The notes under the pieces are model-generated. The model worked only from the letters and a program-made list of their open reading frames with translations. It made no database searches and was not told the origin of the DNA. From Candidatus Scalindua sp. (GTDB lineage: Bacteria; Planctomycetota; Brocadiia; Brocadiales; Scalinduaceae): a stretch of 32,000 nt of DNA. Numbering within the stretch: position 1 is the stretch's first letter; every line of letters begins with the position of its first letter. The DNA is taken from positions 3,120,001 to 3,152,000 of the forward strand of contig JALDRA010000001.1 in assembly GCA_031316235.1 (NCBI GenBank), written 5' to 3'. A program made the position numbers and the translations under genes. Positions 545 to 18,726 of the stretch are shown piece after piece.

Positions 545-563
545 AATAATCTCGTTTGCATTG

Positions 564-586
564 AAAACGTAAAGGTACGTTTTTTT
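564..586. other. Hairpin AAAACGTA-AAGG-TACGTTTT followed by a T-run, in the spacer between two pseudopilin genes
   Basis: Perfect 8-bp inverted repeat read directly. The A/T runs on both sides make it terminator-like on either strand. It could attenuate read-through from the major to the minor pseudopilin gene. Confidence 0.3.
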
Positions 587-600
587 ATGAGAAGATATGA

Positions 601-714
601 TATACTAAAAACGATTTGGTTTTCGGTTTTACTGGAAACCAGATCTTGGTGAAGGTATACTCGCTCAATTTTATCTCGGATTCTATCCGAAATCCAGTAT
701 GAGATGAGTATAAT
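601..714 (+). repeat. Intergenic repeat family 1, copy A (short form, 114 nt)
   Basis: TATACTAAAAACGATTTGGTTTTCGGTTTTAC...GGTATACTCGCTCAATTTTATCTCGGATTCTATCCGAAATCCAGTATGAGATGAGTATAAT. Differs at about 6 positions from the reverse complement of 18802-18915. Confidence 0.9.
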
Positions 715-880
715 CTTAAAAACAAGGTAAAAATAGCACTTTATCCGGTTGAAATCAAGAGGAAACTGAAAGTTACGGAAGGTTTATGAAATGAGCGAAA
801 GAGACTCTCCGTCTCTCTCTCTGTTTTCGTATAAGAAATCCTGCATCCCGAATCTATGCCGAGTTCCCGGATATTTAAGC

Positions 881-1327
881 CTATCGATTCCAGTTGTTTA
901 TGTCGTCAATATCACTTCCGGAAGTTGTCGATATACCGTCCGGGCCTGGAGAATACAGGTCGTATGAACCGGTATTCTGATTTCCAGGAGAAACATATAC
1001 GAGAGGGTTACCCCAATAATCAACAATCGTATCACCGCTTACTGTATCATCATGTAATTCGATATACTGTCTTAAGGCGGTACCGGATGGTTGCAGCAGA
1101 GACTTGAGATTTGCTATATCCCCGGAAGGATAGGATCTGTTATCACTGTAATAGTGTTCAATCGCCATTTCCAGGCGATCGATCATTGTTCTGGTGGCCT
1201 TTATCTGGGTGTTTTTACTCAAACGGGGAACCACCGTCAAAACGGATGCGGTAATTACGAGGATTATGCTGATAACTACCAGAAGTTCTGTCAGGGTAAA
1301 TCCATTTTTACCAGTTTGTAATGTCAT
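881..1327 (-). CDS. gspG: Major pseudopilin, GspG/PulG-like
   Basis: MTLQTGKNG|FTLTELLVVISIILV prepilin motif. The C-terminal part matches the T2SS-G signature (YP..., DYWGNPLVYVSPGNQNTGSYDLYSPGPDGI...DDINNW). The ATG at 1327 is preferred over the GTG at 1336. Overlaps the upstream gene by 20 nt. Confidence 0.85.
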   Translation of the reverse strand: MTLQTGKNGFTLTELLVVISIILVITASVLTVVPRLSKNTQIKATRTMIDRLEMAIEHYYSDNRSYPSGDIANLKSLLQPSGTALRQYIELHDDTVSGDTIVDYWGNPLVYVSPGNQNTGSYDLYSPGPDGISTTSGSDIDDINNWNR

Positions 1328-1979
1328 CACTTGCACTGTTTCCTGAATCGTCTACCTTGTCAGGCCCGAATGAATATATATCAAACGAGGCGATATTGTG
1401 AGAAGGAGAGCTGCTTACGTATGAGTAATCACTGCCAAAAGGATCTTTATACTGGAAGACCTCTCTCGTTCCGTTGACTCCTTCTATACTGAGCGTTGCG
1501 GTATCTGAGGCAAAATCAGCACCCGATCCTTCAATCTGCGATCTCTTGAATTCTATATAGGGGCCGAATATCTCATTAAAACTCGTTGAATTGAACTTAA
1601 ACCTGCTGCCGAGAAAAAAGACAAGACATTTTGTGTCTGTATTGAGATCATCATCGCGAGGTATCTCTATACTGGCGAGAGAGATCATTGTATCTGCTGT
1701 TGTGTAGCTGTCGGGTGGAAAGAAACCAAAGTCACTCTCAAATTGCCTGAGTGCAAGCCCCAGCTGGCTTATCTGAGCAGCGGTAACGCCACTCTTTGCG
1801 TTGGTCTGGATAGAACTTACAACAGGTACGGTAATTCCAACAAGAACCATGATGATTACGAGAACAACTAACATCTCTACGAGCGTAAACCCGGTTGAAG
1901 AGTTCTTTTTTAACAGGGGGGAGGGAGGTACGGCAGGTTGTTCAGAACCCTGCGAGTCCATTAGTATCTCACTCGGCAT
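1308..1979 (-). CDS. Second GspG-like pseudopilin with an internal insertion
   Basis: Prepilin motif STG|FTLVEMLVVLVIIMVLVG lies at residue ~96 of the maximal ORF (open to 2177). The GspG-like C-terminus is FDIYSFGPDKVDDSGNSASDDITNW. The first ~66 codons of the maximal ORF are low-complexity read-through (MSMRNSMSMRGNS) of a CATACT-rich spacer, so M67 (1979) or M73 (1961) is the likelier start. Confidence 0.75.
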   Translation of the reverse strand: MPSEILMDSQGSEQPAVPPSPLLKKNSSTGFTLVEMLVVLVIIMVLVGITVPVVSSIQTNAKSGVTAAQISQLGLALRQFESDFGFFPPDSYTTADTMISLASIEIPRDDDLNTDTKCLVFFLGSRFKFNSTSFNEIFGPYIEFKRSQIEGSGADFASDTATLSIEGVNGTREVFQYKDPFGSDYSYVSSSPSHNIASFDIYSFGPDKVDDSGNSASDDITNW

Positions 1980-2263
1980 CCTGTCACTAAAGTGTATCGA
2001 ATACCTACGGAAATTTCCGGCAGAATTTTTTTCTGATGGTACAAAGTCCGTTAAACCCGCCAGAGATCCTGTTCTAAAATCTGATTTCATCACCTTTTTT
2101 TTATAAATTGCTGTAATGACGGAGAGAATTTTACTATGCGAGTTTCCCCGCATACTCATACTATTTCTCATACTCAATTTTCGACAACTCTTATCACCAT
2201 GGAACGTTCAACTCGGTTCACCCGCCATTTACTGCTTGACGGTCTTTATTCCCTTCAAAACGT

Positions 2264-3508
2264 TTAAAACGAACCCATACTGCTCATGAGTTTTATAAGA
2301 GGCATGAACAGGGCCAGGACTATCGTACCGATCGCACAGCCTATAAATGTGACCATAAGTGGTTCGAGCAGGCTTATCATAGCTGTTACTGCTGCATCAA
2401 TTTCTTTATCATAATTGTCGGCAGCCCTGGCAAGCATCATATCTAACTTGCCAGATTGTTCGCCTATTTCTATCATACTGACAAGTGTGGGCTTGCATAT
2501 CTTTGTATCCCGCAATGTCTTTGCGATTTTTTCTCCTTCACGGACTTTATTATGCATATATTCTATTGCATTTCTGAGTGCGGTATTTGCCGTAACATCT
2601 TTAACATTATTTAAAGACTGTAAAATAGGGACACCACTTGATGTCAGGGTTGAAAGAGTTCTGACAAATTTGGAAATAACAGACTTGCTTATGATAGAAC
2701 CGATAACAGGCAGTTTGAGTGTTATCCTGTCCTTTATCAGCCTGCATCTTTTCATTTTCATGATGAGCTTATATAAGACAAACAAAGCGACAGGAAATCC
2801 AAAGATTACATACCATCGGCTGATCATAAAGTCGCTCAAGCTGATAATCATCACGGTAATCCATGGAAGAGAGATGTCAAGCTCATCAAACATCTTTGAA
2901 AAACTGGGGATTATGAAAATCATAATCCCTGATATTATTGCACAGGCAACGAAAACAACAGCCAGTGGATAGGTTATCGAGCTTATTATTTTCAGCTTGA
3001 GTGCCCGGATTTTTTCCCGATAATTTGCCAGCCTGTCAAGAATTATATCAAGTGCACCCCCGATCTCTCCGGCTTTTATCGTATTTACATACAGCTTGTC
3101 GAATGCTTTCGGGTGTTTCTGCATTGCACCTGACAGATTATTGCCTTCCTGGATATCTCTTATCATGTGAGTGAGTATGGTTTTTAATAATCCTTTTTTC
3201 AGCTCAGATTCAATAATAATCAAACTTTCCACAATTGATATTCCCGCTTCCTGAAGTGTTGATAACTCTCGTGTAAAGGAATCTATTTCTTTTGGATTTA
3301 TCCTGCTTAATAAGAATGCTGTTGGGGGTTTTTTCTTTTCTTTGTTTCTGGTTCTGTTCTTGCGAAGGCCTCTGGTTTCTTTTATACTGGTGAGAAAAAA
3401 CCCCCTCTCACCAACCTTTCTGATGGCCTCTTCGTTTGAGAGTGCTTCAATCCAATCTTTAACCAGGATGCCTTTTTTGTCTATCGCTTTAAATTTGAAA
3501 GTTGGCAT
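2264..3508 (-). CDS. gspF: Type II secretion / type IV pilus platform protein GspF/PilC
   Basis: 414 aa with two T2SS-F repeats, each followed by TM helices (e.g. ...AGEIGGALDIILDRLANY... and ...IGEQSGKLDMMLARAADNY...). This is the typical size and topology. Confidence 0.9.
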   Translation of the reverse strand: MPTFKFKAIDKKGILVKDWIEALSNEEAIRKVGERGFFLTSIKETRGLRKNRTRNKEKKKPPTAFLLSRINPKEIDSFTRELSTLQEAGISIVESLIIIESELKKGLLKTILTHMIRDIQEGNNLSGAMQKHPKAFDKLYVNTIKAGEIGGALDIILDRLANYREKIRALKLKIISSITYPLAVVFVACAIISGIMIFIIPSFSKMFDELDISLPWITVMIISLSDFMISRWYVIFGFPVALFVLYKLIMKMKRCRLIKDRITLKLPVIGSIISKSVISKFVRTLSTLTSSGVPILQSLNNVKDVTANTALRNAIEYMHNKVREGEKIAKTLRDTKICKPTLVSMIEIGEQSGKLDMMLARAADNYDKEIDAAVTAMISLLEPLMVTFIGCAIGTIVLALFMPLIKLMSSMGSF

Positions 3509-3585
3509 TTTGTTGTTCGATAGAAGAAATTTTCAGTTACCAGCAGTGTCAGGAAATGGAGAGAAAACCTTATTGATCGTCTGAA

Positions 3586-3718
3586 CGAAAACCCCGCGGT
3601 TGAAGCAGGAGTGCCCGGATTCCAGGGGTGTAGATTTCGTAAACGTAACCTGCAGAGATACTTGAGGTTTCTGGAATTTTACCGCAAGGCAGCCGATTGA
3701 GGTTTGCGTTCAACCGCT
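3586..3718 (+). repeat. Intergenic repeat family 2, copy 2 (between ATPase and gspF)
   Basis: CGAAAACCCCGCGG...GATTTCGTAAACGTAAC...TACTTGAGG...CCGCAAGGCAG...GCGTTCAACCGCT is homologous by eye to 15309-15446, 28674-28805 and 1-72. The ends GCGGTTGAA (3596-3604) and TTCAACCGC (3709-3717) are a perfect 9-bp inverted repeat. Confidence 0.7.
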
Positions 3719-3725
3719 AGGTAAT

Positions 3726-5438
3726 TTAAGCTACTTCCCTCATAACCTCTTTTATTGTAGTTTGACCATTATAGATTGCATTGAGTCCGCTCTCCAGCAA
3801 AGTTTTCATACCGCTCCTTCTCGCAATTTTCCTTATTGTTTCTGTGGATGATTGTTGAATGATGTGGGAACATATCTCATCGTTAATCGTCATTATTTCA
3901 AGGATAGACAATCTGCCCTTGTAACCTGTATTGTTGCATTTACCGCAACCTTTTTCCCGATAGAACTGCTTTTTCCCTAATACCGATTCAGGGATATGAA
4001 GCTTCTTGATAATATTCCTGTCCGGCATATACTCTTCCCTGCATTCAGGGCAGAGCTTTCTCACCAGCCTCTGATTTATGACGGCCGTAAGTGAAGCGGT
4101 TATTAAATACGGTTTAACGCCCATATTGATTAATCTTGTTATCGTCGATGGTGCATCATTTGTATGTAAGGTACTTAAAACGAGATGGCCGGTAAGTGAA
4201 GCATGCATTGCAACTTCAACTGTTTCTAGATCTCTGATCTCACCCATCAGGATAATGTCCGGGTCTTGTCTCAAAATTGCTCTCAGGCTGTTGGCAAATG
4301 TAACGCCGATTTCTGAATGGATCTGTACCTGCGTGATACCATCAATGTCATATTCTACCGGATCTTCAGTCGTAATAATTTTTATTCCGGAACAGCGTAC
4401 AAAATTAAGAGCGGCATATAATGTTGTCGTTTTACCCGAGCCTGTGGGTCCTGTAACCAGGATAATACCGTATGTTTTCTTCATCAACTGTTTAATTGTG
4501 TTGAGATCCTGGTAATTTAATCCTAACTGTGTAAGATCAAGTGAAACTGAATTCTTGTCCAGTATCCGCAGGACAATACTTTCTCCATGTTTGGTAGGTA
4601 ATGTGGAGATGCGAATGTCAACATGGTGACCTCTTATTGTTACATGTGCATGGCCATCCTGAGGTACTCTCTTTTCCGCTATGTCCATGTTTCCCATCAC
4701 CTTGAGTCTTGAAACAATGCCGTTTGCAAAGTGTGGGGGGACAGGTATCTCATCAAGCAGCATACCGTCAACTCTGAAACGGACATGGAACTCATTTTCA
4801 AAGGTTTCAAAATGGATGTCGCTTGCCTTATCTGAGATTGCCTGCAAAAGTATTAAATTGACGAAACTTTTAACTGGTGCATTATCGACCAGGTCTTCAA
4901 GATCTCCAATCTCTTGAGATTCTTTGGTTTTACTCATTTTCTTTTCAGGAGTATAGTGCTCAAATGTATCCATGAGTTCTTCGATGGATTCATGTTCTCC
5001 CGGATAGTATCTATCCAGGCAGTTTGAAATCAACTCCTGCTCAGCCAGGACAGCCTTGAGATTATACTTGAGTAAGAATCTCAGGTCATCCATCTGTTCC
5101 ATATTGAGAGGTTCTTCCTGTGCTAACGAAAGGGTATACCCATCGTAAGCTATGGGAAGGACTCGATAAAGCTGCGCAATTGAAGGTGGAATCTTTTCAA
5201 TGATATCCGGTTTCAGTTCAACTCTTCTGAGGTCAACAACCTCCATGTCAAGATAATCACTTAAGGCTTCCAATATTAACTGGTGTGAGGTTACGCCGGA
5301 CTCTACTAATGTTTTCCCCAGTGACTTACCGTTAAGTTGCTGCATTTCGAGTGCTTTTTCTATCTGGATTTCATTTACCAGTCTCTTTTCCAGCAGGATC
5401 TGTCCAAATAATTTTTTTCGCACTTCCTTTATGCTCAT
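3726..5438 (-). CDS. gspE: GspE/PilB-family secretion ATPase, paralog 2 (MshEN-like N-domain with degenerate c-di-GMP motif)
   Basis: Walker A GPTGSGKTTTLYA, Asp box, Walker B ILMGEIRD, His box LVLSTLHTNDA, tetra-Cys CPEC...CGKC. The N-terminal T2SSE_N/MshEN-type fold is LFGQILLEKRLVNEIQIEKALEMQ-QLNGK-SLGKTLVESGVTSHQLILEALSDY. Confidence 0.92.
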   Translation of the reverse strand: MSIKEVRKKLFGQILLEKRLVNEIQIEKALEMQQLNGKSLGKTLVESGVTSHQLILEALSDYLDMEVVDLRRVELKPDIIEKIPPSIAQLYRVLPIAYDGYTLSLAQEEPLNMEQMDDLRFLLKYNLKAVLAEQELISNCLDRYYPGEHESIEELMDTFEHYTPEKKMSKTKESQEIGDLEDLVDNAPVKSFVNLILLQAISDKASDIHFETFENEFHVRFRVDGMLLDEIPVPPHFANGIVSRLKVMGNMDIAEKRVPQDGHAHVTIRGHHVDIRISTLPTKHGESIVLRILDKNSVSLDLTQLGLNYQDLNTIKQLMKKTYGIILVTGPTGSGKTTTLYAALNFVRCSGIKIITTEDPVEYDIDGITQVQIHSEIGVTFANSLRAILRQDPDIILMGEIRDLETVEVAMHASLTGHLVLSTLHTNDAPSTITRLINMGVKPYLITASLTAVINQRLVRKLCPECREEYMPDRNIIKKLHIPESVLGKKQFYREKGCGKCNNTGYKGRLSILEIMTINDEICSHIIQQSSTETIRKIARRSGMKTLLESGLNAIYNGQTTIKEVMREVA

Positions 5439-5447
5439 GCCTGTTCC

Positions 5448-7142
5448 TTAATCGTTTGATACTCTCTTGATCTCTTCCAGGGTTGTAATTCCGGCACGGA
5501 CCAGTCTCAATCCATCTTCCTTTAATGTTGTCATTCCTTCAGAATGAGCGATCTTTCGTAATTCGTTTGTCGGCACTTTTCTGTGAATAGCCTCCCTTAA
5601 TTCGGGAGTCAAAGACAGAAACTCAAATATCCCTACCCTTCCAAAATAACCGGTGTTGTTACAATAGTTGCATCCCTGCCCGTGAAAAGATAGTGAACCG
5701 TCAAAATCCTCTGTGGTAAACCCGAGATCATTTAAGCTCTCTTTTTCCATGTTCTGTGGGACTTTACATGAGGGGCATATGACTCTCACGAGGCGTTGAG
5801 CCAGTATTGCGTTAATGGATGCTGATAAGAGAAAGGGTTTTATTCCCATTTCAGTCAGCCGTGTTATCGCTGAAGGGGCATCATTTGTATGGAGTGTGCT
5901 TAATACAAGGTGTCCTGTTAATGATGTTGAAACGGCTATTTCTGCTGTCTCAATATCACGTATTTCACCAACAACTATCACGTTTGGGTCTTGACGGAGC
6001 ATGGAACGCAGGATTTTAGAAAAAGTCAGTCCTACCTTTTCTTTAACTTCACACTGATTAATTCCTCTCAGATCATATTCTATAGGATCTTCCACGGTAA
6101 TTATTTTATATTGTTTCGGATTGATTTCATTTATGGCCGCATAGAGCGTGGTCGTTTTTCCGCTACCGGTAGGACCGGTGATCAAAATGATACCGTTCGG
6201 CCTGCTTAATAACTCTTTTACATGGCGGTGATTATGTTCTGAAAGACCGACATTATTCAGTTGAATGAGTGAAGATGATTTATCCAATAACCTCATTGTA
6301 ATACTTTCGCCGCATGTGGAAGGTATGGTACTGACCCTGATATCAGTCTGCTTTCCTTCAACATTTACTGAGATTCTCCCATCCTGGGGTTTTCTTGTTT
6401 CGGTTATGTCCATATTTGAGAGTATCTTTATCCTGCAGACCAACGCCTCATGTACGTTTTTCGTAATAGTATGCATATCATGACATACACCATCAATCCG
6501 GAATCGTATATTAATATTAGTCGACAACGGTTCAATATGTATGTCGCTGGTTCTCGTCTTGACAGCCTCTTTAAAAATATGCATGACAAGTCTCACAATG
6601 GGTGATTCCGAATCATCCAGCCCCTCAGCACCGAAGTGGCTATTCTGGGAGGCCTTGAGCGCTAACCCCTTGAGATCATTGCAGATATCTCCTAGCATGA
6701 GTTCCGTATTCTTTTCATAGTATTTCTTTATGGCGTTCTCAATATTATCGCTCGTTGCCAGAACACACTCTATGTCATAATCAAGGATAAAACGCAGGTT
6801 TTCCTGGGTGTTAATATCAAGCGGGTCGCTTGTTGCCACAATAAGAAGCCCATTTTGTCTTGCAATAGGTATGATATTATATTGTTTTACGATATCTTTT
6901 TTAATAATGTTTATAACGTCATCGGGAATAGCGATAGCCAGAGGATCAACAACTTTATAATCAAACTGTTCCGCAAGACAATTGGTAATATGTTCAGCGT
7001 TAGCAAAGCCCATCTTTATTATCACATCACCCAATCTGGCAGACAGCATCTTCTGTTGCTCCAATGCCTTATCCAGCTGTTCCTGGGTAATAAATCCCTT
7101 TTCTTTCAGTATTTGTCCGATTGCTTTTCGTGTGGTCTTCAT
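5448..7142 (-). CDS. gspE: GspE/PilB/MshE-family secretion ATPase, paralog 1 (well-conserved MshEN c-di-GMP-binding motif; motif 2 fully canonical)
   Basis: Walker A GPTGSGKTTTLYA, VVGEIRD, LVLSTLHTNDA, CPSC...CNYC. The N-terminus is AIGQILKEKGFITQEQLDKALEQQ-KMLSA-RLGDVIIKMGFANAEHITNCLAEQ, i.e. two 24-residue RLGxx(L/I)(L/I)xxG(L/F)(L/I)xxxxLxxxLxxQ-type motifs separated by 5 residues. Confidence 0.92.
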   Translation of the reverse strand: MKTTRKAIGQILKEKGFITQEQLDKALEQQKMLSARLGDVIIKMGFANAEHITNCLAEQFDYKVVDPLAIAIPDDVINIIKKDIVKQYNIIPIARQNGLLIVATSDPLDINTQENLRFILDYDIECVLATSDNIENAIKKYYEKNTELMLGDICNDLKGLALKASQNSHFGAEGLDDSESPIVRLVMHIFKEAVKTRTSDIHIEPLSTNINIRFRIDGVCHDMHTITKNVHEALVCRIKILSNMDITETRKPQDGRISVNVEGKQTDIRVSTIPSTCGESITMRLLDKSSSLIQLNNVGLSEHNHRHVKELLSRPNGIILITGPTGSGKTTTLYAAINEINPKQYKIITVEDPIEYDLRGINQCEVKEKVGLTFSKILRSMLRQDPNVIVVGEIRDIETAEIAVSTSLTGHLVLSTLHTNDAPSAITRLTEMGIKPFLLSASINAILAQRLVRVICPSCKVPQNMEKESLNDLGFTTEDFDGSLSFHGQGCNYCNNTGYFGRVGIFEFLSLTPELREAIHRKVPTNELRKIAHSEGMTTLKEDGLRLVRAGITTLEEIKRVSND

Positions 7143-7208
7143 TTCGATACAAGTATACCCCTGGCTGCAGGATTAATCTGAAGGACATATTTGATGATTG
7201 TGCGTTGG

Positions 7209-7323
7209 TATACTAAAACCGATTTGGTTTTCGGTTTTACCGGCAACCAAATCCTGGTTGCAGTTATACTCGCTCAATTTTATCTCGGATTTTATCCGAA
7301 AACCATTGTAAGATGAGTATAAT
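7209..7323 (+). repeat. Intergenic repeat family 1, copy B (short form)
   Basis: TATACTAAAACCGATTTGGTTTTCGGTTTTACCGGCAACCAAATCCTGGTTGCAGTTATACTCGCTCAATTTTATCTCGGATTTTATCCGAAAACCATTGTAAGATGAGTATAAT. Lies 66 nt upstream of the first ATPase gene (opposite strand). Confidence 0.9.
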
Positions 7324-7571
7324 ACAGAATTAACCTCTCTTTCCACCTCTCTCAATGGTACAGGAGACGTTCCTTTATTATTCTGGAGAAGAGAAGAGTC
7401 GTTATGAGTTCAAAAGATTTCAACGAATGGATCCGCCTGCAATCCCTGTTTTGTGTTCCCGGGTGAATATTTTTCTCTCCAGAAGTACTATCGGCTGATC
7501 TGCAGGTTTTTTATACATATAATTTTTCTTGGTGACATGAATGGGAACGGCAAAAGATAACCAAAATATTC

Positions 7572-7712
7572 AATTACCCTCATATCATGATGGTTTTTCG
7601 GAAAAAATCCGGGGAAAAACGGAGAGAGTAAAGTCCTCGGCGCCTGGTTTGTCCGGGGATACCTGCAATCAGGCGGTTAGAAAAATCTAAAAGCAAATCG
7701 GTTTTAGTATAC
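7572..7712 (-). repeat. Intergenic repeat family 1, copy G (long form, inverted relative to copy B)
   Basis: The reverse complement reads GTATACTAAAACCGATTTGCTTTT...GGTATCCCCGGACAAACCAGGCGCCGAGGACTTTACTCTCTCCGTTTTTCCCCGGATTTTTTCCGAAAAACC...GAGGGTAATT. Its outer 19 nt are identical to the outer 19 nt of copy B. Confidence 0.85.
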
Positions 7713-7991
7713 TTGATTTCCCGGTCTCGGGAGGAGATGAGTCTATACCGGTGCAGGATAAAAGGTTCAAGGGTAAGGTCTCAGAAAAAACAGCCCGGTA
7801 TTCACTCCTGTCCCCGCCGGAAATATTGTCTCCCGCCCGGAAGAATCAGTTCGGCAGCCACCATCCGCCGGCCGCTCGGCCCGATCTGATCTTCCAGACC
7901 TGGTAAAAGCAATTTGCAGGGAATAGAGAAGCGGGAATCTAGAGTTTTGTCCATTTCTCTGTTTCGAGGTAATTCGAATGACAATCGGGAA

Positions 7992-8909
7992 TTAATGAAC
8001 GATAACCCTGTTTTTCCCCTGGGTTTTTGCCTGGTAAAGCACGGTATCTGCAGCCGTAATCAGAAATTCAGGGGAGCTGTTTTCCTGCGGGGTGTCAGGG
8101 GTAAACCCTGCCAGCCCGAAACTTGCCGTAACCTGTATCTCTTTCTCCTCAATTCTCATGGTTTTTTGAGCAATATTTTCGCAGATCCTTTTTGCTAAAA
8201 AGGAGGCACCCTCGATTCCTATTTCCGGAAGGACAAGTAAAAACTCTTCGCCTCCGTAACGGACAAGCCAGTCCAGGCCTTGCCTGATAGTGTCGTTTAT
8301 CGTTTGAGCAAAAAGTATTAATACCTGATCTCCGGTTACGTGCCCGTGCGTATCGTTAATTTTCTTGAAATTATCTATGTCACACATGATAATCGACAGC
8401 GAATGTCTGTATCTCCTCGCTCTTTTGATCTCATTGTTTAGATGTGCATTCATATAGGTACGGTTGAAGCATCCGGTAAGAGCATCGGTTATCGATAATC
8501 TCAGATTCTTTTTATCGTGTTCCCGTTCCAGCAGAGACTGTTTATTATATTCAATTCCATCATTAATTGCCGCAATGAGGGTTTTTGGATCGCAGGGTTT
8601 GGTCAGAAACCGAAAGATGTTTCCCTGGTTTACTGCATCTATGGCTTTCTGGAGTTCGGCCTTGCCGGTAAGGATTATGCATGCACAGTCAGGATTTATC
8701 TCCTTGACAGAGGAGAGGAACTGGAGCCCGTTCATGACCGGCATCTGGAGGTCGGAAACAACAACAGAAAAAACCCCGTCGTTGGCAACTTTTGTCAACC
8801 CCTGTTCACTTCCAAGGGCGGTATCGATGCTGAATAATTTTTTCAGCATACGTTTGTATGACATTAATATGTTTGGCTCGTCATCCACAAAAAGAACTTT
8901 ATCATTCAT
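7992..8909 (-). CDS. Response-regulator diguanylate cyclase (REC-GGDEF, PleD/WspR-like)
   Basis: REC: VLFVDDEPN...VVVSDLQMPVMNG...ILTGK...FLTKP. GGDEF: active-site RYGGEEF, preceded by RQGLD (not a canonical RxxD I-site). AAAGGGAG precedes two ATGs (8915, 8909) and spacing favours 8909. The maximal ORF runs to 9002. Confidence 0.9.
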   Translation of the reverse strand: MNDKVLFVDDEPNILMSYKRMLKKLFSIDTALGSEQGLTKVANDGVFSVVVSDLQMPVMNGLQFLSSVKEINPDCACIILTGKAELQKAIDAVNQGNIFRFLTKPCDPKTLIAAINDGIEYNKQSLLEREHDKKNLRLSITDALTGCFNRTYMNAHLNNEIKRARRYRHSLSIIMCDIDNFKKINDTHGHVTGDQVLILFAQTINDTIRQGLDWLVRYGGEEFLLVLPEIGIEGASFLAKRICENIAQKTMRIEEKEIQVTASFGLAGFTPDTPQENSSPEFLITAADTVLYQAKTQGKNRVIVH

Positions 8910-9142
8910 CGGCATCTCCCTTTTTTTATAACGTATGCTGTTCCCCAATTTTGAAAAAAATATCTCTCTCGTGTTAAAATTATGCCTTTCGATTGCAGCC
9001 ACTTATTCACGGTTACCATCCCTTCCCGATAATGAACCTGTGGAGGACGGAAACACACATCAGTGAGGCAGCAAATATTTTGTTCCTGCTTCAGGATACC
9101 TACCCTTTAAAATGATACTGACCGGACTGCTGTAAGCAGAAA

Positions 9143-9781
9143 TCAATCTCCCGGAGCCGATAAGCTTTCTTCTGCTTTTAAAAGAAAGCCGGAAAGAATT
9201 GCCTTCGTGTCAATATCCATATGAATAAATTCTATGCCCAGACCTATATCTTCAGTGTTTGTGCTTATGTTTTTCTGTATTGATGGTATGGTCAGTTCGT
9301 TCTTCATGCCGGGCAACTTGAAGAGTATGGTGAATTCGCCTACCGTCTCTATTGAGGTAATGCAGTGTGCAATCTTTGAAAGATCTGCAATAAAATGGCA
9401 TCCTTTTTTGCTAATATCGGTAATGCTCCCCTCTATTAAATTGCCTGAAATTTTTACCTGAGCAGGCAGATGGCAGCTGATTCTCTTGTTGCTTCGCAGG
9501 CCAAAGTTCTCAAATCTGGTCGGATAATCAATAAAGATCAGGTGTGCCGGATTGGTAATAAAGCCGAGTATGCGGGAACTGAAGCCAAAGATAGTGCCTT
9601 TATGGCGGTATTTAACACTAATCCCGTTTCCTCTGTATAATATGTTTGCCGTAAGTCCCAGCTCATACAAAGGTGGCATCTTGAGAATCACATATTCTCC
9701 TTCCTCCATTCCGACGAGTTCGGTTGTCAGCTGTGCTTCAACGCCATTTACCTGGATTCCCATTAAGGTACCTATATTCAT
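9143..9781 (-). CDS. PilZ-domain c-di-GMP receptor (YcgR-like N-domain + PilZ)
   Basis: Canonical PilZ motifs RSNKR (RxxxR) and DISKKG (D/NxSxxG) about 25 residues apart, with a ~100-aa N-terminal beta-barrel-like domain. Confidence 0.8.
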   Translation of the reverse strand: MNIGTLMGIQVNGVEAQLTTELVGMEEGEYVILKMPPLYELGLTANILYRGNGISVKYRHKGTIFGFSSRILGFITNPAHLIFIDYPTRFENFGLRSNKRISCHLPAQVKISGNLIEGSITDISKKGCHFIADLSKIAHCITSIETVGEFTILFKLPGMKNELTIPSIQKNISTNTEDIGLGIEFIHMDIDTKAILSGFLLKAEESLSAPGD

Positions 9782-10168
9782 AATTTATGTCTGCTCCTTT
9801 TTCAAATCCTTCATGCAGCTGTTAGAATCCATTATTCAGAATCCAGAATAGAAGTTGAGCATGGTTCATGTATGAGTTGGCTCAAGTAGCTTACTTATCT
9901 CTTCAAGTTGTACATACTACCTTTCCTCCCGAACGTAGCAGTTCCAGCCCCCGTCCGAACAGATTCATCCGGGCGGTGCGGGCGGGTAGTATTTTGCTTT
10001 AACGCAGAGGCGCGGAGGACGCAGAGCTTATGCCGCAAAGCTTATATCAAGCTGCGACTGAAAGGAAATTTACTCTAATTTGCTGACTACCCGGCAAATC
10101 GCATCGCATAATAAATAATGTTTTCAATTCATAATTCTGAAATCCAAAATCTCAATTCTTCATATTAT

Positions 10169-12094
10169 TTACATCCCATTTGCTGCTAAAACCTTATTTA
10201 GGTCATTTGTTTTCAGTGAAGGTGTACCGGCAATGACCTGGCCTAAAATATCCAGTGACAATGGAGAATTAAGAACAAGGATATCCTTATACTCTCTGGA
10301 TGTCATGAGTGTAGCATTGTTTATCATAGTATCAAGAACTTCATCTGATAATGGACTATTGTTTTGCATGGTCCACTCAAAGGACATCATTATTGTACCT
10401 TCATTTATTGCTGCAATAAGTACATTGTCAGACAATGGGTTATTACTCGCTAAGTTTAAGATATTTTCATTGTCACCGGAAGACAATGAAGGATTTCGGT
10501 TTATCATTGCGATCAGTACGGCATCTGATAGCGGCGATTCGCTAACAAGATAATTTGCAACATCAGATGAACTATTTGCCGGGTTATTGATGAAGTCTAT
10601 TAGTGCCTGATCATTAGAGTCAGGGGTAGCAGAACTACAGTCATCATCAATTCCATTGCCGGGTATCTCGGCTATACTGGGGTTGACAGCTGGATTGGCA
10701 TCATCACAGTCACCCTGGTTCCCGGTAAATCCGTCACCGTCATTGTCTATATCGAGAAGACTGTCTGGGGTTGCAGAGCTGCAGTCATCATCGATTCCGT
10801 TACCGGGTATCTCGGCTATACTGGGGTTGACGGCTGGATTGGCATCATCACAGTCACCCTGGTTCCCGGTAAATCCGTCACCGTCATTGTCTATATCGAG
10901 AAGACTGTCTGGGGTTGCAGAGCTGCAGTCATCATCGATTCCGTTGCCGGGTATCTCGGCTATACTGGGGTTGACGGCTGGATTGGCATCATCGCAGTCA
11001 CCCTGGATCTCGGTAAATCCATCACCGTCATCATCTGTATTGAGAAGGCTGTCTGGAGTGGCCGGGTTACAGTCATCATCTTTCCCGTTATCAGGTATCT
11101 CTGCCATAGCGGGGTTGACGGCCGGGTTGCCGTCATCGCAGTCACCCTGGTTTCCCGTAAACCCGTCACCATCATTGTCTTCACCCTCATCAGGATCCTC
11201 TATGGTGGCAGTCGTTCTGCCGTCAATGGACAACTCCAGCGCTGCGCCGTTATTTCTGTCCAGGACATCAACCGTTCCCGTTATCAGGGTGACGGTAGTG
11301 GCCCTGTTTGCATTAACCGTCCCGACCGTAAACCGGGTGCCCCGTACCCCGATAATGGCACTCGGTGTTACCACCTCGAATTTAGAGCCTGCCGTAACCT
11401 GGATATCGATTGTCCCCTCGTCTTCAACCCGTATGATGCTGTAGAGTGTCCCGTCTGCCAGCCGAACCGACTGGACGAGGTATGTCCCGTATCCCGACTG
11501 GGAGTCGGTGATGGTCACCCTGCTTCCGTCTGAGAAGACCATTTCATCATTTATGCTGCCTATGGTTCTCTCGGCAGAGGTACCGTCGGGCGGTATCTCC
11601 TGGCCGTTAACGAGTACGGTATCGATATTGGTGATATTGGTTGCACCTGCACCGAAGAGATTTGTGGCTTTTTTCGCCTCCCTGTGGTGGGGACATCCGA
11701 TGATGAGTTTGTCAACATCGTAGGGGTCCTTTCGTGCCACATAATAGGGGTCATAGCTTGCAAAGCTGGCGGTGCTGACCGGGTTGTCGTCTTCGGGGCA
11801 GAAAAAGGTCTTTTTTTCCGGCACATAGCGGGCAAGTTCGGCAGAGAGGGGGAGGGTATCATTGGAGTCATCCGGGTAGCCGTCCTTCGGGAATTTTCCG
11901 TGTTCGTTATAGTAGATCTGCATACCCAGGGAAATCTGTCTCAGGTTGCTCATGCATGCAGTCTGGTGAAATGCAGTGCGTTCCTTGAGGATGGCAACCG
12001 TTGCAATGCCGGCCACTATCGCTACGATGGTCATCGTGATCATGATTTCGATGAGCGAGAACCCTTTTTTAGCGCCGGAGAATATGTTTTTCAT
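10169..12094 (-). CDS. Giant chimeric pseudopilin: prepilin/DUF1559-like N-terminus + FecR-like domain + 4 Asp/Cys-rich repeats + C-terminal PLSDxVL repeats
   Basis: MKNIFSGAKKG|FSLIEIMITMTIVAIVAG prepilin motif. CMSNLRQISLGMQIYYNEHGKFP and FFCPEDD resemble planctomycete DUF1559 pseudopilins. VVTPSAIIGVRGTRFTVGT is FecR-like. There are 4 copies of D(N/D)DGDGFTxxQGDCDDxNPAVNPxxAEIPxNGxDDDCxxATPDS and 4 copies of (S/N)xPLSDxVLxxxIN. Confidence 0.85.
   Translation of the reverse strand: MKNIFSGAKKGFSLIEIMITMTIVAIVAGIATVAILKERTAFHQTACMSNLRQISLGMQIYYNEHGKFPKDGYPDDSNDTLPLSAELARYVPEKKTFFCPEDDNPVSTASFASYDPYYVARKDPYDVDKLIIGCPHHREAKKATNLFGAGATNITNIDTVLVNGQEIPPDGTSAERTIGSINDEMVFSDGSRVTITDSQSGYGTYLVQSVRLADGTLYSIIRVEDEGTIDIQVTAGSKFEVVTPSAIIGVRGTRFTVGTVNANRATTVTLITGTVDVLDRNNGAALELSIDGRTTATIEDPDEGEDNDGDGFTGNQGDCDDGNPAVNPAMAEIPDNGKDDDCNPATPDSLLNTDDDGDGFTEIQGDCDDANPAVNPSIAEIPGNGIDDDCSSATPDSLLDIDNDGDGFTGNQGDCDDANPAVNPSIAEIPGNGIDDDCSSATPDSLLDIDNDGDGFTGNQGDCDDANPAVNPSIAEIPGNGIDDDCSSATPDSNDQALIDFINNPANSSSDVANYLVSESPLSDAVLIAMINRNPSLSSGDNENILNLASNNPLSDNVLIAAINEGTIMMSFEWTMQNNSPLSDEVLDTMINNATLMTSREYKDILVLNSPLSLDILGQVIAGTPSLKTNDLNKVLAANGM
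10616..11179 (-). repeat. Tandem 144-bp coding repeat (4 copies) inside the giant pseudopilin gene
   Basis: The CCGGGTATCTCGG anchor recurs at 10659, 10803 and 10947 (and a diverged CAGGTATCTC at ~11092), a period of exactly 144 bp. Copies 10659-10802 and 10803-10946 differ at only 2 positions by my reading. Confidence 0.95.
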
Positions 12095-13465: not shown

Positions 13466-13523
13466 CACCGTATGGGATGGAGGGGAGGAACACGGGAGAT
13501 TTATCGAGTTTTCCGGGTAAATC

Positions 13524-15278
13524 TCAAATTGGACATACCCTGTTTCTCCCGCTGTTTTTGGCCTGATAGAGACCTTTATCGGCCCGTACAATAAATCTCT
13601 CACCTGTTTCATACCCATCATGGTATTCAGCAACACCAAAACTCGCCGTTACCCTATGGGGTGTTCTGTGATCTCCGAGATAAAATCGATACTGCTCAAT
13701 GGATTTGCGGATTTTATCTGCAATCTTGACGGCATTGTCACGGTTTGTGCCGGGCAGCATGAGAATGAATTCTTCACCTCCATAACGGCAGGCAACGTCG
13801 AGTGTCCGGCTTATAGTGCGTAATATCCTGGACACCGTACATAACACTTCGTCTCCCGCTGCGTGCCCGAAGCTGTCATTAATCTTTTTAAAGAAATCCA
13901 GGTCAAACATGATAACCGAAAGATCTTTATTTCTACGGAGTTTTACACTCTTGATCTCGGCATTGAGCATTAATTTGAAATGACCAATATTGTAGAGACC
14001 GGTCATATTGTCTTTCGTTGCCAGGTTCGTGAGTCTTCTTTTTTCAATCGTAACAATAATTTGATGATAAACCGTTAAGGCAAAAGAGCTGAAAAAAATG
14101 AGAATCAACGGATAAACAAGGCTGATGATTACATTACCATAGGCAAACAGGACTACGGAAGTAATTGTATAACTCAAGGCAAGCGCGATAATGAGAAGAA
14201 GAGTGTTAAAATATCCAAAACGCTGAGTAATGAGAAAAATCAGCCCGCTCAGGCACCAGATTATCAGGAGATTTTCAAAATCACCGGTGGTGCTCAGGAA
14301 TTCTCTTTGAAGGAGGGAATTGGTAACCGTTGCATTGATGCCCACTGAAGGATAGGCGGGTTCCAGAGGGATGGAACGGATATCATGGAGCCCTGTCGCC
14401 GTAACACCTACAATACAGAGTGAATCTTTAAACATCTCCATCGGTATCAGGGTTTTCCGGCCCTGCAACCATTGAGAATAGGCAACCATGACATCATTGT
14501 AGGATAGGTGAGAAAAAGTTTCCGTCCACCTGCCGGCCCAGTTAATGATCATATCACCCTCTTTTGTCAAAGGGATTTTCAGGGGCTTTTCGCCTGGTAG
14601 GGGAACCTGGAGAAAATTGCTGCCGGTTTTCATATCCTCTGGATCAATACCGTAGTAATCGAGTGCCAGCACCAGGCCAAGCTGGTAATAACTCCGGTTT
14701 TTGTACTGAACTCTGAGCTTGATTCTGCGAACTAGGCCATCGCTGTCTGGTTGAACGCTAATGTGCCCTTCCGTTTTAGCGGCATTCTCAAACAGGGGAA
14801 TGGGTTGGATAATATTATTCCCCCTTATTGCGTGTAAATCCTGAAAAGCAACAGGCAGGTACACGTTTCCCGCTTCTTTCATGCCTTGTGCAAACACGGT
14901 ATCTGATTCATCCGTAGAAGTTTCAGGAAAAAGGATATCGAAGGCAAGGGCCTTAACCCCCCAATCTGACATCGCTTTCGTTAATGCGGCATGTCTTTCA
15001 CGGTTCCAGGGCCACCTTCCCAGCTCTTTGATACTGTCTTCTGCAATTTCAATAATAATGATTTTTGGATGAACAGGAAGAGTTGTCCTGTATTTGAAGC
15101 GTTGATCCAGGCTCATATTCTCTACCGTATCAAATGTTCCGGCAAGATAAAAAAATGTTGAAATTGCAGCAACGAGGAGTACAACGAAAATCTTTGAAAC
15201 GAACAGGTTTTCCTCACGCATCAAGTAGCTCTTTACGTGTATAAAAAATCTTCCAATAGGCAGGAGGAATTTTGGCAT
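13524..15278 (-). CDS. CHASE2-sensor diguanylate cyclase (CHASE2-TM-GGDEF)
   Basis: N-terminal TM, then a periplasmic CHASE2-type region (ELGRWPWNRERHAALTKAM...ALAFDILF...HISVQPDSDGLVRRIKL), 3-4 TM helices, and GGDEF with RYGGEEF and an intact RTLD I-site 5 residues upstream. The alternative start M20 is at 15221. Confidence 0.88.
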   Translation of the reverse strand: MPKFLLPIGRFFIHVKSYLMREENLFVSKIFVVLLVAAISTFFYLAGTFDTVENMSLDQRFKYRTTLPVHPKIIIIEIAEDSIKELGRWPWNRERHAALTKAMSDWGVKALAFDILFPETSTDESDTVFAQGMKEAGNVYLPVAFQDLHAIRGNNIIQPIPLFENAAKTEGHISVQPDSDGLVRRIKLRVQYKNRSYYQLGLVLALDYYGIDPEDMKTGSNFLQVPLPGEKPLKIPLTKEGDMIINWAGRWTETFSHLSYNDVMVAYSQWLQGRKTLIPMEMFKDSLCIVGVTATGLHDIRSIPLEPAYPSVGINATVTNSLLQREFLSTTGDFENLLIIWCLSGLIFLITQRFGYFNTLLLIIALALSYTITSVVLFAYGNVIISLVYPLILIFFSSFALTVYHQIIVTIEKRRLTNLATKDNMTGLYNIGHFKLMLNAEIKSVKLRRNKDLSVIMFDLDFFKKINDSFGHAAGDEVLCTVSRILRTISRTLDVACRYGGEEFILMLPGTNRDNAVKIADKIRKSIEQYRFYLGDHRTPHRVTASFGVAEYHDGYETGERFIVRADKGLYQAKNSGRNRVCPI

Positions 15279-15308
15279 TCTTTAAATTTCCTTATCTAGT
15301 GCCTGATC

Positions 15309-16232: not shown

Positions 16233-16257
16233 GCAGGTATGATTTCCCGGGAAGAAC

Positions 16258-18726
16258 CTACACCTTTATGGGAATGGCTGTTTCTGATTTGTCATGCGGC
16301 TCTATTATACGGTTTTCAGGGCATTGATTAATAGAGGTGAGGAAAATTGCTGCAAGTTTCGGATCAAACTGGGTCCCTGCACCCCTTTCAATTTCCTGGC
16401 AGGCTATTTCCATCGAGAGTCCCTTTCTATAAACCCTGTCTGATGTCATTGCGTCATAGGCATCGGCAATTGAGATGATCCTTGCTATCAGATGGATATC
16501 ATCCCCCTTTAAACCATCAGGATACCCCTTGCCATCATACCGTTCATGGTGGTTGCGTACACCGGGCATCAGGACACTTAATCGGGACATCGGTTCCAGA
16601 ATTTTGCTCCCCTTCAGGGGGTGTGATTGTATTATTTCAAATTCTTTCGCTGATAGACGGCCCGGTTTATTTAAAATATCACCACTGATTCCAATTTTTC
16701 CAATATCATGAATAGTGGAAGAGAGCTCTATAAATTCCAGTTCTCCCGGTGTCAGACCCAGCTCCCTTCCAATCCCGACACTGTATCCGGCCACCCGCTT
16801 CGAATGTCCATGGGTATAGGAGTCTCTTGCATCAAGGGCTGTCGAAATTGATTTGATATAATCAAGGAAGATGGAGTGAATACTGTTATTGAGCTGATGA
16901 TTTTCGATTGCGATGGCAATCTGATGAGTGAATGAAGAGAGTACTCTCAGTTCTTCAGAGGTAAATTTTGACAAGGGTGAAAATGCTGAAGTTGGCTTGT
17001 TGCAGAGGAAAAGGGTCCCTATGATCTGTCTTCTCAAAAATATTGGGACACAGAATACACTCCGTATAGCTGTCTGTAGCAGTGACAAATCGGGATGAAT
17101 AGAGAGATCATCAATCCAGACAGGCTTTTCATCGGAGAGAATCCAGGTATTTACCACGTCTGCTATTCTGTCTAATTCTTCTCTGGTTCCATGAAGAGCT
17201 GTTGCGGTAGAGTGTTTAAAACATTGTGTATCTCCATCCAGGGTATAGAGTGCGACCATTTCACAGCGGGTTGTTTTTTTTATAGGATCTAAAAAACCTG
17301 ATGGCAGTGTTGATGAAACGGTGAGCGCAGAAGTGATCCTGACATCTTCCTGAAAGCGTTGTAAAGAATACTCATCAGGTTCATGGGTAGATGTCGTGAT
17401 CTCTCCGACCTCAAGAAGCATGTTTAATTCAAGTTCTCTCATGGCCGATTCTTTGTTGGCAACACTGAGATTGACAGCCAGACAGGCACCGGTATTCATC
17501 AAAAGCATTGTTACGAACGGCATCATTTCAATCATTAAATTTGCTTTTTGAAATAAGAACAGACTGGTAAATGCAACAATTCCTGAGAGTAAAAACAGGA
17601 ACAAAAGACCGCCTGCAAGGAGAGAATAGGTACTGCCCCGTATGCGTATCCTGAAAATGAGTATGCTCAGGAGTATTGATACACCCACGATGATGGATAT
17701 AATGGTGTAAGACTGAGGTACCCGGATGAAATTTTCCGTCAACAGGTTGTAAAGGATGTTTGCATGCAGGAATATTCCGAATTTACGTTCAAAGGGTGTA
17801 ACATGAATGTCCTGTTCCGCACCTGGTGAGGTAATACCAAAGAGAACAATTTTGTCTTTGAAGTGGTCGGCGGGGAGCCTGTTTTCATTTTGTAACGATA
17901 CGTCTGAAAATGAGTATAAGGTGATAGGTTTCTCTTTTCCTATCTTATCCAGCCATTGAACGCTGTTTTGCTGGTATAAATTAATGTATTTTTCAAAATC
18001 TATATAATTAATCGGCAAACAACTATTTTTGTCAAGGGGTATCGTTAATTCACCTATTCTGAAATGATTTCCATGATATGACTGGATTTCAGGTTCAATC
18101 CCCTTTGATTCGAGAAATGCGGAAAGGGCGAAAGGGAGAAAACGTTTCCTGCCGTCTGCACTCGATATTTGAAGGGGTATCCTTCTTGCAACTCCGTCAC
18201 TATCATAAAATACGTTTAAGTGGCCTGTTCTTTTTGTCGAGTCGGAGAGTAATTTTATATTTTCAATTATTTTTCCCTTGTAAATGCCATTTTCAGGCCT
18301 TGTTCTGAAAAGATTAACCGTTGGACTCCATATAGGGAAGATAGTCATATCAGCGTTAATGGCAGCTTCTGATAAAGCGGTATCGTTCTCTGGATTTTCA
18401 CTATCCTGGAGGTCGAAAAACATATCAAAGGCAATAACACTGGCGCCGCCTTTTTTTAAATAGTCTACCAATTCTGCATAACGGCTTCTTGGCCAGGGCA
18501 GATGGCCGAACAGTTGCATATCTTCATCCGTAATGCCAATTACTGCTATTTTTGGCACATCGAGTCTCTTTTTGACGCTATTATTTCTGAGACGCCAGTC
18601 GTACAAGATTTTTTCCGGCTTATCAAAGATTCCGGTAAAGGATAACAAGGATATGATTGCCGTGACCGTTAACCCCCACAGGAAACCATGGAAGTTTTGT
18701 TTTATAAAAGGCTTAACATTAAGCAT
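16258..18726 (-). CDS. CHASE2-sensor c-di-GMP phosphodiesterase (CHASE2-TM-GAF-HD-GYP)
   Basis: CHASE2 region (FGHLPWPRSRYAELVDYL...VIAFDMFF...HLNVFYDSDGVARRIPL), a block of TM helices, a GAF-like middle domain, and a C-terminal HD-GYP (HGHSKRV...HDIGKIG...HHERYDGKGYPDGL). Confidence 0.88.
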   Translation of the reverse strand: MLNVKPFIKQNFHGFLWGLTVTAIISLLSFTGIFDKPEKILYDWRLRNNSVKKRLDVPKIAVIGITDEDMQLFGHLPWPRSRYAELVDYLKKGGASVIAFDMFFDLQDSENPENDTALSEAAINADMTIFPIWSPTVNLFRTRPENGIYKGKIIENIKLLSDSTKRTGHLNVFYDSDGVARRIPLQISSADGRKRFLPFALSAFLESKGIEPEIQSYHGNHFRIGELTIPLDKNSCLPINYIDFEKYINLYQQNSVQWLDKIGKEKPITLYSFSDVSLQNENRLPADHFKDKIVLFGITSPGAEQDIHVTPFERKFGIFLHANILYNLLTENFIRVPQSYTIISIIVGVSILLSILIFRIRIRGSTYSLLAGGLLFLFLLSGIVAFTSLFLFQKANLMIEMMPFVTMLLMNTGACLAVNLSVANKESAMRELELNMLLEVGEITTSTHEPDEYSLQRFQEDVRITSALTVSSTLPSGFLDPIKKTTRCEMVALYTLDGDTQCFKHSTATALHGTREELDRIADVVNTWILSDEKPVWIDDLSIHPDLSLLQTAIRSVFCVPIFLRRQIIGTLFLCNKPTSAFSPLSKFTSEELRVLSSFTHQIAIAIENHQLNNSIHSIFLDYIKSISTALDARDSYTHGHSKRVAGYSVGIGRELGLTPGELEFIELSSTIHDIGKIGISGDILNKPGRLSAKEFEIIQSHPLKGSKILEPMSRLSVLMPGVRNHHERYDGKGYPDGLKGDDIHLIARIISIADAYDAMTSDRVYRKGLSMEIACQEIERGAGTQFDPKLAAIFLTSINQCPENRIIEPHDKSETAIPIKV

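Follow-up and report, generated by a model that had tools for sequence, protein, structure and literature searches.

Introduction

Among the described systems nearest to the proteins studied here are the assembly ATPases MshE from Vibrio cholerae and PilF from Thermus thermophilus. In this work, a pair of paralogous GspE/PilB-class assembly ATPases (paralog 1 and paralog 2), encoded side by side in a stretch of 32,000 nucleotides (nt; hereafter the window) of Candidatus Scalindua sp. (Planctomycetota, order Brocadiales; contig JALDRA010000001.1, positions 3,120,001 to 3,152,000), was compared with these and other systems. MshE (5HTL; PMC5013675) comprises an MshEN_N four-helix bundle, MshEN_C and a T2SSE ATPase domain with a tetra-Cys motif, and its bipartite motif for binding c-di-GMP (cyclic dimeric guanosine monophosphate) has a 24+5+24-residue layout. 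Both paralogs share this architecture. Unlike MshE, neither has Arg at both first positions of the motif (Ala and Arg in paralog 1, Leu and Ser in paralog 2), and motif II of paralog 2 ends in Tyr. Moreover, MshE works alone, whereas here two paralogs precede one platform gene.

The contribution of single residues to ligand binding is known for VcMshEN (Wang 2016 Suppl. Table 1; PMC5013675). Binding was not detectable for G11L, 72-fold weaker for G40I, 10- to 38-fold weaker after Leu-to-Ala changes, 9-fold weaker for Q32A and 11.8-fold weaker for Q61A. The domains GSPII-A, -B and -C of PilF (PMC11731258, PMC12002112; 8PDK, 9G1W) form a natural set of MshEN-like domains whose motifs deviate to graded extents; these three domains are fused in one polypeptide, whereas the variants described here are located on two separate ATPases. 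GSPII-B, with both Arg residues replaced by Lys and Leu, has a c-di-GMP affinity of 6 nM, the consensus has been widened to (R/K/L)LG, a hydrophobic first residue predicts very high affinity, and GSPII-C tolerates Pro at the start of motif II (PMC11731258). With its Leu10, paralog 2 resembles GSPII-B in this respect. The Q218E variant of GSPII-B (corresponding to position 61 of MshE) retains binding at 460 nM; binding is lost only when both Gln residues are mutated. GSPII-A is a natural non-binder with Ser at the position of Ser39 of paralog 2 and a motif end other than Gln (PMC12002112). It differs from paralog 2 by Ala41 and His33, where the latter keeps Gly and the Gln at the end of motif I.

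The closest functional precedent, and so far the only genetically studied case of paired extension motors, is Acinetobacter baylyi (PMC11656802), whose PilB and TfpB are extension-type ATPases of distinct phylogeny. There the two serve one pilus, whereas a common pilus is indicated here by gene order alone. A complex or hetero-oligomer of PilB and TfpB has been proposed and is so far a hypothesis (PMC11656802); mixed hexamers or cooperating pairs of pilus extension ATPases are an open question in reviews (PMC6711533, PMC11656802). Neither of our paralogs is a TfpB ortholog (481 and 456 bits versus 850), and in contrast to the A. baylyi motors the pair is adjacent, conserved in the phylum and equipped with MshEN on both members. 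Finally, the pilB-pilT-pilC operons of type IVa pili (Myxococcus, Geobacter PilB; 3JC8, 5TSG) resemble the order PilB-like, PilT, PilB-like, PilC that was found outside the anaerobic ammonium-oxidizing (anammox) order Brocadiales. They differ in that an extra extension-type ATPase is located here between pilT and pilC, that pilT has left the operon in Brocadiales, and that both paralogs remain below the PilB and GspE equivalog cut-offs. No publication on this pair in Planctomycetes or anammox bacteria was found in a search that had most subscription journals outside its reach.

Our analysis points to an ancient paralogous pair, termed A (paralog 1) and B (paralog 2), which would act as twin extension motors on one platform and whose MshEN domains would probably both bind c-di-GMP in this Scalindua. 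On balance, we lean towards this reading.

Two intact assembly ATPases are encoded in tandem

Positions 5448..7142, minus strand: paralog 1, A-type GspE/PilB-class assembly ATPase, 564 amino acids (aa); open reading frame with translation, T2SSE 441.9 bits, MshEN 65.8 bits, A clade.
Positions 3726..5438, minus strand: paralog 2, B-type GspE/PilB-class assembly ATPase, 570 aa; open reading frame with translation, T2SSE 460 bits, MshEN 69.2 bits, B clade (SH-aLRT 100).

An earlier reading made from the letters of the window alone (hereafter the sequence-only reading) had described tandem full-length ATPases of 564 and 570 aa with Walker A/B, His box and tetra-Cys motifs, and the open reading frames as well as a motif check confirmed this description. 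The two genes are separated by 9 nt, and an AAGGA-type ribosome-binding site overlaps the stop codon of paralog 1. Over their full length the proteins are 41% identical. Both exceed the Pfam gathering cut-offs for T2SSE (PF00437, 24.9 bits) and MshEN (PF05157, 23.1 bits).

The Walker A motif GPTGSGKT, the catalytic-Glu box (V/T)EDP(I/V)E and the His box TGHLVLSTLH are present in both paralogs. The Walker B/Asp box reads VIVVGEIRD in paralog 1 and IILMGEIRD in paralog 2, and the tetra-Cys zinc motif reads CPSC...CNYC and CPEC...CGKC, respectively. Walker A, Glu box, Asp box, His box and the four Cys residues are invariant in all three ortholog alignments of A-type and B-type proteins. By these motifs, both paralogs are predicted to be catalytically competent. 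The possibility that one of them is a pseudo-enzyme partner was ruled out, as all catalytic motifs are intact in both and conserved in both clades.

The best matches in the Protein Data Bank by full-length sequence were PilF and PilB. The equivalog cut-offs were not reached for PilB (TIGR02538; 608.1 and 604.7 bits for paralogs 1 and 2, cut-off 675.65), for GspE (TIGR02533; 587.3 and 599.7 bits, cut-off 630.25) or for TfpB (NF053534; 481.5 and 455.9 bits, cut-off 850). Neither paralog is therefore an exact ortholog of any of these named motors.

Both N-terminal domains pass the c-di-GMP motif model

Positions 6966..7124, minus strand: MshEN_N c-di-GMP motif of paralog 1, 53 residues (7-59), AIG...Q, 5-residue spacer, RLG...Q; NF053729 59.1 bits.
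Positions 5253..5411, minus strand: MshEN_N motif of paralog 2, 53 residues (10-62), LFG...Q, 5-residue spacer, SLG...Y; NF053729 45.5 bits.

The N-domains of both paralogs were aligned to V. cholerae MshE (5HTL) and Thermus PilF; position numbers are those of MshE unless they are given for a paralog. The N-terminal strings quoted in the sequence-only reading were exact, and nt 6966-7124 indeed encode residues 7-59 of paralog 1. The 24+5+24-residue layout as well as G11 and G40, the third residue of each motif, are present in both paralogs. In paralog 1, R9 is replaced by Ala7, L10 by Ile8 and L54 by Ile, whereas G11, Q32, R38, L39, G40, L58 and Q61 are kept. The changes in paralog 2 comprise R9 to Leu10, L10 to Phe11, G18 to Arg19 (the Gly of the inter-helix turn), R38 to Ser39 and Q61 to Tyr62, as well as Ile in place of L25 and L54; kept are G11, Q32, L39, G40, G47 and L58. 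The hydrophobic cluster (positions 10, 25, 29, 39, 54 and 58) reads I/L/L/L/I/L in paralog 1 and F/I/L/L/I/L in paralog 2. Motifs I and II begin with Ala7 and Arg36 in paralog 1 and with Leu10 and Ser39 in paralog 2 (R, K or L in the extended consensus), and they end with Gln30 and Gln59 and with Gln33 and Tyr62, respectively. Eleven of the 12 key positions of paralog 1 (all except Ala7) and ten of the 12 of paralog 2 (all except Ser39 and Tyr62) thus fall within the extended consensus. Both domains pass the curated NCBIfam model of the c-di-GMP motif, NF053729, with its cut-off of 38 bits.

The sequence-only reading held that the c-di-GMP motif is kept by one ATPase and that the key residues are lost in the other. 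This is only partly supported: the differences in sequence exist, but paralog 2 retains both essential Gly residues, the Leu cluster and one of the two Gln residues. Its leading Leu, formerly counted as a loss, belongs to the published extended consensus (R/K/L)LG: because GSPII-B binds with its two Arg residues exchanged for Lys and Leu, Leu10 is not a loss. The real deviations in the motif of paralog 2 are Ser39 and Tyr62 only, whereas the positions that weigh most for binding (G11, G40 and the Leu cluster) are kept. The match of paralog 1 to the bipartite motif stands, although its own missing Arg (Ala7) had been left out of the count.

Structure models of residues 1-150 of each paralog were generated with AlphaFold2, each from a 28-sequence alignment, and reached a predicted local distance difference test (pLDDT) score of 91.1 for paralog 1 and 88.5 for paralog 2. 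For both models the best fold match was the c-di-GMP-bound MshE 5HTL (TMq 0.80 for paralog 1 and 0.79 for paralog 2), which confirms the MshEN fold of both N-domains at the level of predicted structure. Helix alpha1 is predicted to span residues 3-17 in paralog 2 versus 8-14 in paralog 1; the first ten residues of the paralog 2 model have a pLDDT of only 62.

The A/B pair is ancient and conserved in Planctomycetota

The closest named relatives of this Scalindua are Candidatus Scalindua and Scalinduaceae metagenome-assembled genomes (91%, 89% and 65% identity). A family search over 40 genomes of Brocadiales revealed same-strand adjacent pairs of E-type ATPases in three families; 20 pair loci and 20 single-ATPase loci were then examined. 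The A-type gene lies upstream and the B-type gene downstream in 23 further loci from these families. In every pair the upstream member is 46-64% identical to paralog 1 and the downstream member 48-65% identical to paralog 2, with cross-identities of about 40%. The gene for GspF follows the B-type gene in 24/24 Brocadiales pairs. Gaps between A and B are short, with a 4-nt overlap in three Brocadiaceae loci and distances of 9-12 nt in several Scalinduaceae. A recent local duplication was ruled out, the two paralogs being more diverged from each other than each is from its counterparts in other families (46-65% identity). A word-based homolog search with the N-domain of paralog 2 returned only Scalinduaceae-level relatives.

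A maximum-likelihood tree was calculated after removal of the 53-residue motif region. In the larger tree without this region, the A clade (SH-aLRT 93) and the B clade (100) are sisters (97), and both clades hold Brocadiales together with six other Planctomycetota loci. These six loci, which belong to other families and were inspected gene by gene, have the order A, PilT-like (357-375 aa), B, GspF. Moreover, a profile of 25 B-types matched 88/91 genomes of the phylum at E<=1e-190, and in at least 20 of these 88 genomes a lower-scoring, A-level match was found 1.1-1.6 kb upstream on the same strand, which leaves room for pilT. These at least 20 A-T-B arrangements were read from coordinates, and only six of the loci were inspected gene by gene. 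Taken together, the sister clades, the six A-PilT-B-GspF loci and the profile matches demonstrate that the duplication is ancient and phylum-wide.

Further arrangements of tandem ATPases were observed. A tandem in another planctomycete family (L109; G114:C19; 4221-5936(-) and 2487-4205(-), followed by GspF) consists of E-type copies that are sisters to each other; the tree ruled it out as an A/B pair, and it arose by its own lineage-specific duplication, its motifs being fully degenerate. Some Brocadiaceae possess a second pair type, in which a 545-aa ATPase is followed by a 420-aa ATPase without an N-domain (L103, G032:C1:991300-997200; 2708-4345(-) and 1446-2708(-); also G012:C74 and G021:C60). 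The first member of this second type branches at the base of the A clade and the second member at the base of the B clade. Several B-type matches in other Planctomycetota were returned with one in-frame TAG in the matched stretch (G108:C1:746565-748271, G092:C1:897577-899277, G103:C227:68-1771 and G046:C147:2030-3733), which could be due to start-region overreach, sequencing errors or pseudogenes.

Core residues of the c-di-GMP site are retained in the B lineage

The 24 B-types of Brocadiales have, without exception, Leu at position 9, Phe or Leu at position 10, G11, Q32 and G40, as well as hydrophobic residues at 54 and 58 and Tyr, His or Phe at 61. Their position 38 varies (Ser, Ala, Leu, Met, Pro, Ile or Gly). 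G11 and G40 are also kept in 6/6 B-types from other Planctomycetota, and in B-types outside Brocadiales the canonical Gln ends motif II. The 25-sequence B alignment has no more than six invariant columns in the N-domain (L10, G12, L15, Q25, Q33 and G41 in paralog 2 numbering), four of which are ligand contacts (L10, G12, Q33 and G41). A-types are near-canonical only in Scalinduaceae, and even there two of the 12 have Asp at G40. G11 is absent from 11/12 and G40 from 12/12 A-types of the other two Brocadiales families (mostly Glu), and 2/6 A-types from other Planctomycetota lack both Gly residues. At E<=1e-9, NF053729 matched 25/25 B-types, 11/12 Scalinduaceae A-types and 1/13 other A-types.

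Since the A-types show that the fold tolerates replacement of the Gly residues, their invariance in the B-types argues for selection on the ligand site, and we infer that such selection acts on the B lineage. Judged from conservation across the phylum, B would be the constant c-di-GMP-sensing subunit and A the one that repeatedly goes blind, which is the reverse of the assignment made in the sequence-only reading. A natural test system is provided by such a pair, which is phylum-wide, co-inherited and often translationally coupled: the c-di-GMP site is always kept by one member and repeatedly lost by the other. The pairs also provide a comparative series for refining the MshEN motif, in which motif II starts with Ser, Ala, Leu, Pro or Met and has Tyr or His instead of its final Gln.

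In the A-types of Brocadiaceae (L077-L086, e.g., L077:3435-5153(-)), both motif Gly residues show parallel replacement by Glu, and in front of motif I acidic or neutral residues take the place of the positive patch. The Gly-to-Glu state looks like a conserved, possibly selected c-di-GMP-blind state rather than random decay.

Several points weigh against the reading that both motors bind c-di-GMP and share a platform. Those that concern paralog 2 speak for the model of the sequence-only reading, in which A senses c-di-GMP and B is blind, the two forming either a mixed hexamer or a regulated and a constitutive alternative motor; we regard this model as unlikely. Proven binders have R/K/L/P and Gln at the sites of Ser39 and Tyr62 of paralog 2, and the NF053729 score of paralog 2 is lower than that of paralog 1 (45.5 versus 59.1 bits). 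The reversion of the first-position Ser and of the terminal non-Gln residue of motif II was among the changes needed for binding by GSPII-A, and in the series of truncated PilF9-65 reconstructions measurable binding was abolished when Ser39 was put back (PMC12002112). The 11.8-fold weaker binding of VcMshEN Q61A points in the same direction. In the structure models, alpha1 of paralog 2 is N-terminally extended and its domain is nearer to the non-binder GSPII-A (TMq 0.76 versus 0.63 for paralog 1). An extended alpha1 was seen in GSPII-A and also in the apo form of the binder GSPII-B (PMC12002112), and in our predicted model it is a weak hint towards non-binding of paralog 2, no more. Full restoration of the consensus in the intact GSPII-A domain did not restore binding, the motif alone being not predictive (PMC12002112). 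The conservation of Gly and Leu in B could instead reflect a constraint of the fold or of protein contacts. Finally, the trees are "quick" IQ-TREE runs, and adjacency and co-inheritance do not prove a shared platform or a mixed hexamer.

A blind paralog 2, however, would not be expected to retain Q32, the complete hydrophobic cluster and both of the essential Gly residues, and with Leu opening motif I a high affinity is predicted. The background in which Ser39 was tested in PilF9-65 also carried Ala41 and was already weak at 19 µM (PMC12002112), and single terminal-Gln mutants of two model proteins retain binding. Moreover, the positions in question are invariant in B-types across the phylum and freely lost in A-types, and paralog 1 is itself off-consensus at Ala7. 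We therefore continue to favour c-di-GMP binding by both N-domains of this Scalindua.

Probable twin motors on a single platform

Positions 2264..3508, minus strand: GspF/PilC platform protein of 414 aa (T2SSF, two repeats, 203 bits), encoded by the only platform gene that follows the ATPase pair.

According to the reading that we favour, Planctomycetota would inherit A and B, both PilB/GspE-class extension ATPases, together and beside a single PilC/GspF platform gene, the putative ancestral operon having the order A, PilT, B, PilC, pilins. In the anammox order pilT would have left this operon, by which A and B became directly adjacent; there they are probably translationally coupled. Both motors may serve the same platform, whether joined in a mixed hexamer or forming two hexamers with distinct tasks, possibly with a division of labour between initiation and processive elongation as proposed for A. 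baylyi PilB and TfpB. Most likely, both N-terminal MshEN domains of this Scalindua would bind c-di-GMP. The site on A is near-canonical, and the site on B would represent a lineage-specific variant that opens motif I with Leu, begins motif II with a variable residue and carries Tyr or His where the last Gln would be. Owing to Ser39 and Tyr62, the affinity of this variant for c-di-GMP probably differs and is perhaps weaker. The local c-di-GMP level may be set by neighbouring diguanylate cyclases and an HD-GYP phosphodiesterase.

The 4.26-Mb genome encodes six full-length E-type ATPases, three GspF/PilC proteins and two secretins, that is, six E-type ATPases for three platform genes. The layout recurs in a second A/B operon at C1:1.585-1.596 Mb, where an A-type and a B-type gene are followed by genes for GspF, GspH and further pilins; in the region C1:1585001-1604500 (locus L010) its genes are located as follows.

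9002-10693, minus strand: A-type ATPase of the second operon.
7271-8989, minus strand: B-type ATPase of the second operon.
5934-7190, minus strand: GspF of the second operon.

Two of the three platform genes are thus each preceded by an A/B pair, and the pair has been duplicated as a unit. The idea of the sequence-only reading that the two ATPases act together on one platform is strengthened by this duplication and by the A, B, GspF order in 24/24 pairs; they could form a mixed hexamer or separate hexamers. A more far-reaching model, in which A and B form an obligate mixed motor (e.g., A3B3) with B as a fixed sensor and A as a tunable one (sensing in Scalindua, blind in Brocadiaceae), the different affinities of the two sites in Scalindua giving a graded c-di-GMP response rather than an on/off switch, appears improbable to us. 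If true, it would be the first natural hetero-hexameric PilB-class motor.

The A-type of the second operon has Asp at G40 and Lys at Q32 and looks impaired, while the A copy in the window looks sensing. MobB and Hdr/Mvh-like genes are located upstream of the second operon, and no c-di-GMP genes were found there.

Gene neighbourhood in the window

Positions 1308-2177, minus strand: GspG-like pseudopilin gene.
Positions 881-1336, minus strand: GspG-like pseudopilin gene.
Positions 71-544, minus strand: GspH-like pseudopilin gene; N_methyl, T2SSG and GspH domains were detected among the three pseudopilin genes.
Positions 7992..9002, minus strand: REC-GGDEF response-regulator diguanylate cyclase, PleD-like (GGDEF 153.9 bits, Response_reg 72.5 bits, GGEEF motif).
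Positions 9143..9781, minus strand: YcgR-like PilZNR-PilZ c-di-GMP receptor (PilZNR 50 bits, PilZ 35.9 bits, RxxxR as RSNKR, DxSxxG as DISKKG).
Positions 13524..15278, minus strand: CHASE2-GGDEF diguanylate cyclase (CHASE2 169 bits, GGDEF 152.6 bits, GGEEF motif).
Positions 16258..18726, minus strand: CHASE2-GAF-HD-GYP c-di-GMP phosphodiesterase (CHASE2, GAF and HD_5 domains; HD, HHE and GYP motifs).

The operon runs on past the window with I/J-like genes and a K-like gene of 803 aa, and a modular pilin of 641 aa is encoded upstream of the pair, on the same strand and amid the c-di-GMP genes. These unusual giant pilins would suit a model in which the two ATPases power separate processes without cooperating, e.g., with one ATPase for ordinary pseudopilus extension and the other for special substrates such as giant modular pilins, or with retraction driven by one of the two. 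Both ATPases are full, intact motors, and with pilT gone from the Brocadiales operon the second motor could have assumed another role. We nevertheless consider this model highly doubtful: each pair is accompanied by only one platform gene, the pairing is older than the anammox order and is found alongside PilT in other Planctomycetota, and two PilT-size genes remain in this genome.

The PilZNR-PilZ gene, which is located two genes upstream of the pair and has intact RxxxR and DxSxxG motifs, raises another alternative. Neither N-domain would bind c-di-GMP; both would be docking modules, and the signal would be transmitted via the adjacent YcgR-like PilZ protein, as in the PilB-PilZ-FimX complex of Xanthomonas citri. 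A fold match to the X. citri PilB(N)-PilZ complex 7LKM/7LKO was obtained for both N-domain models as well (TMq 0.66-0.81), and the insufficiency of motif sequence alone for binding would agree with such a relay. It is very improbable in our view, given that both domains pass NF053729 and have ligand-bound MshE as their closest fold. In addition, only two relatives, the closest ones (L015 and L016), share the REC-GGDEF and PilZ genes beside the pair, while conservation of the motif reaches much further. PilB of X. citri, moreover, is not known to carry the motif Gly residues. Anammox bacteria grow as aggregates and biofilms, and with c-di-GMP binding by both N-domains, which we favour, the pair points to a motor through which c-di-GMP may control surface filaments.

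The spacer between the B-type gene and gspF is unusually long (217 nt, 3509-3725). It contains a terminator-like hairpin on the minus strand (3610-3592, GGGG followed by a T-run), the whole scan being at chance level with nine terminator-like sites in 2100-9200 versus 6.6±3.0 expected. About 850 nt between the REC-GGDEF gene and the A-type gene are non-coding (7143-7991), and presumably the operon promoter is located there. The promoter scan of 2100-9200 was likewise at chance (24 promoter-like sites versus 17.4±5.1 expected). An Rfam scan of 1-19500 at gathering thresholds gave no match to any family, and hence no c-di-GMP riboswitch.

Other pilus-motor genes in the same genome

A lone 550-aa E-type ATPase with a degenerate MshEN motif is encoded at C1:4082578-4084230 (locus L012, 6578-8230(-)). 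Its neighbours are EB_dh, Fer4_11 and nitrate-reductase-delta-like genes, with no pilus gene alongside.

The absence of a PilT-like ATPase stated in the sequence-only reading holds within the window, but not for the genome, in which two adjacent ATPases of PilT/PilU size (367 and 368 aa, T2SSE domain only) are encoded at C1:1660465-1662737. These two genes (locus L014, 5465-6568(+) and 6631-7737(+)) lie between two TldD/PmbA peptidase genes, far from the pilus operons.

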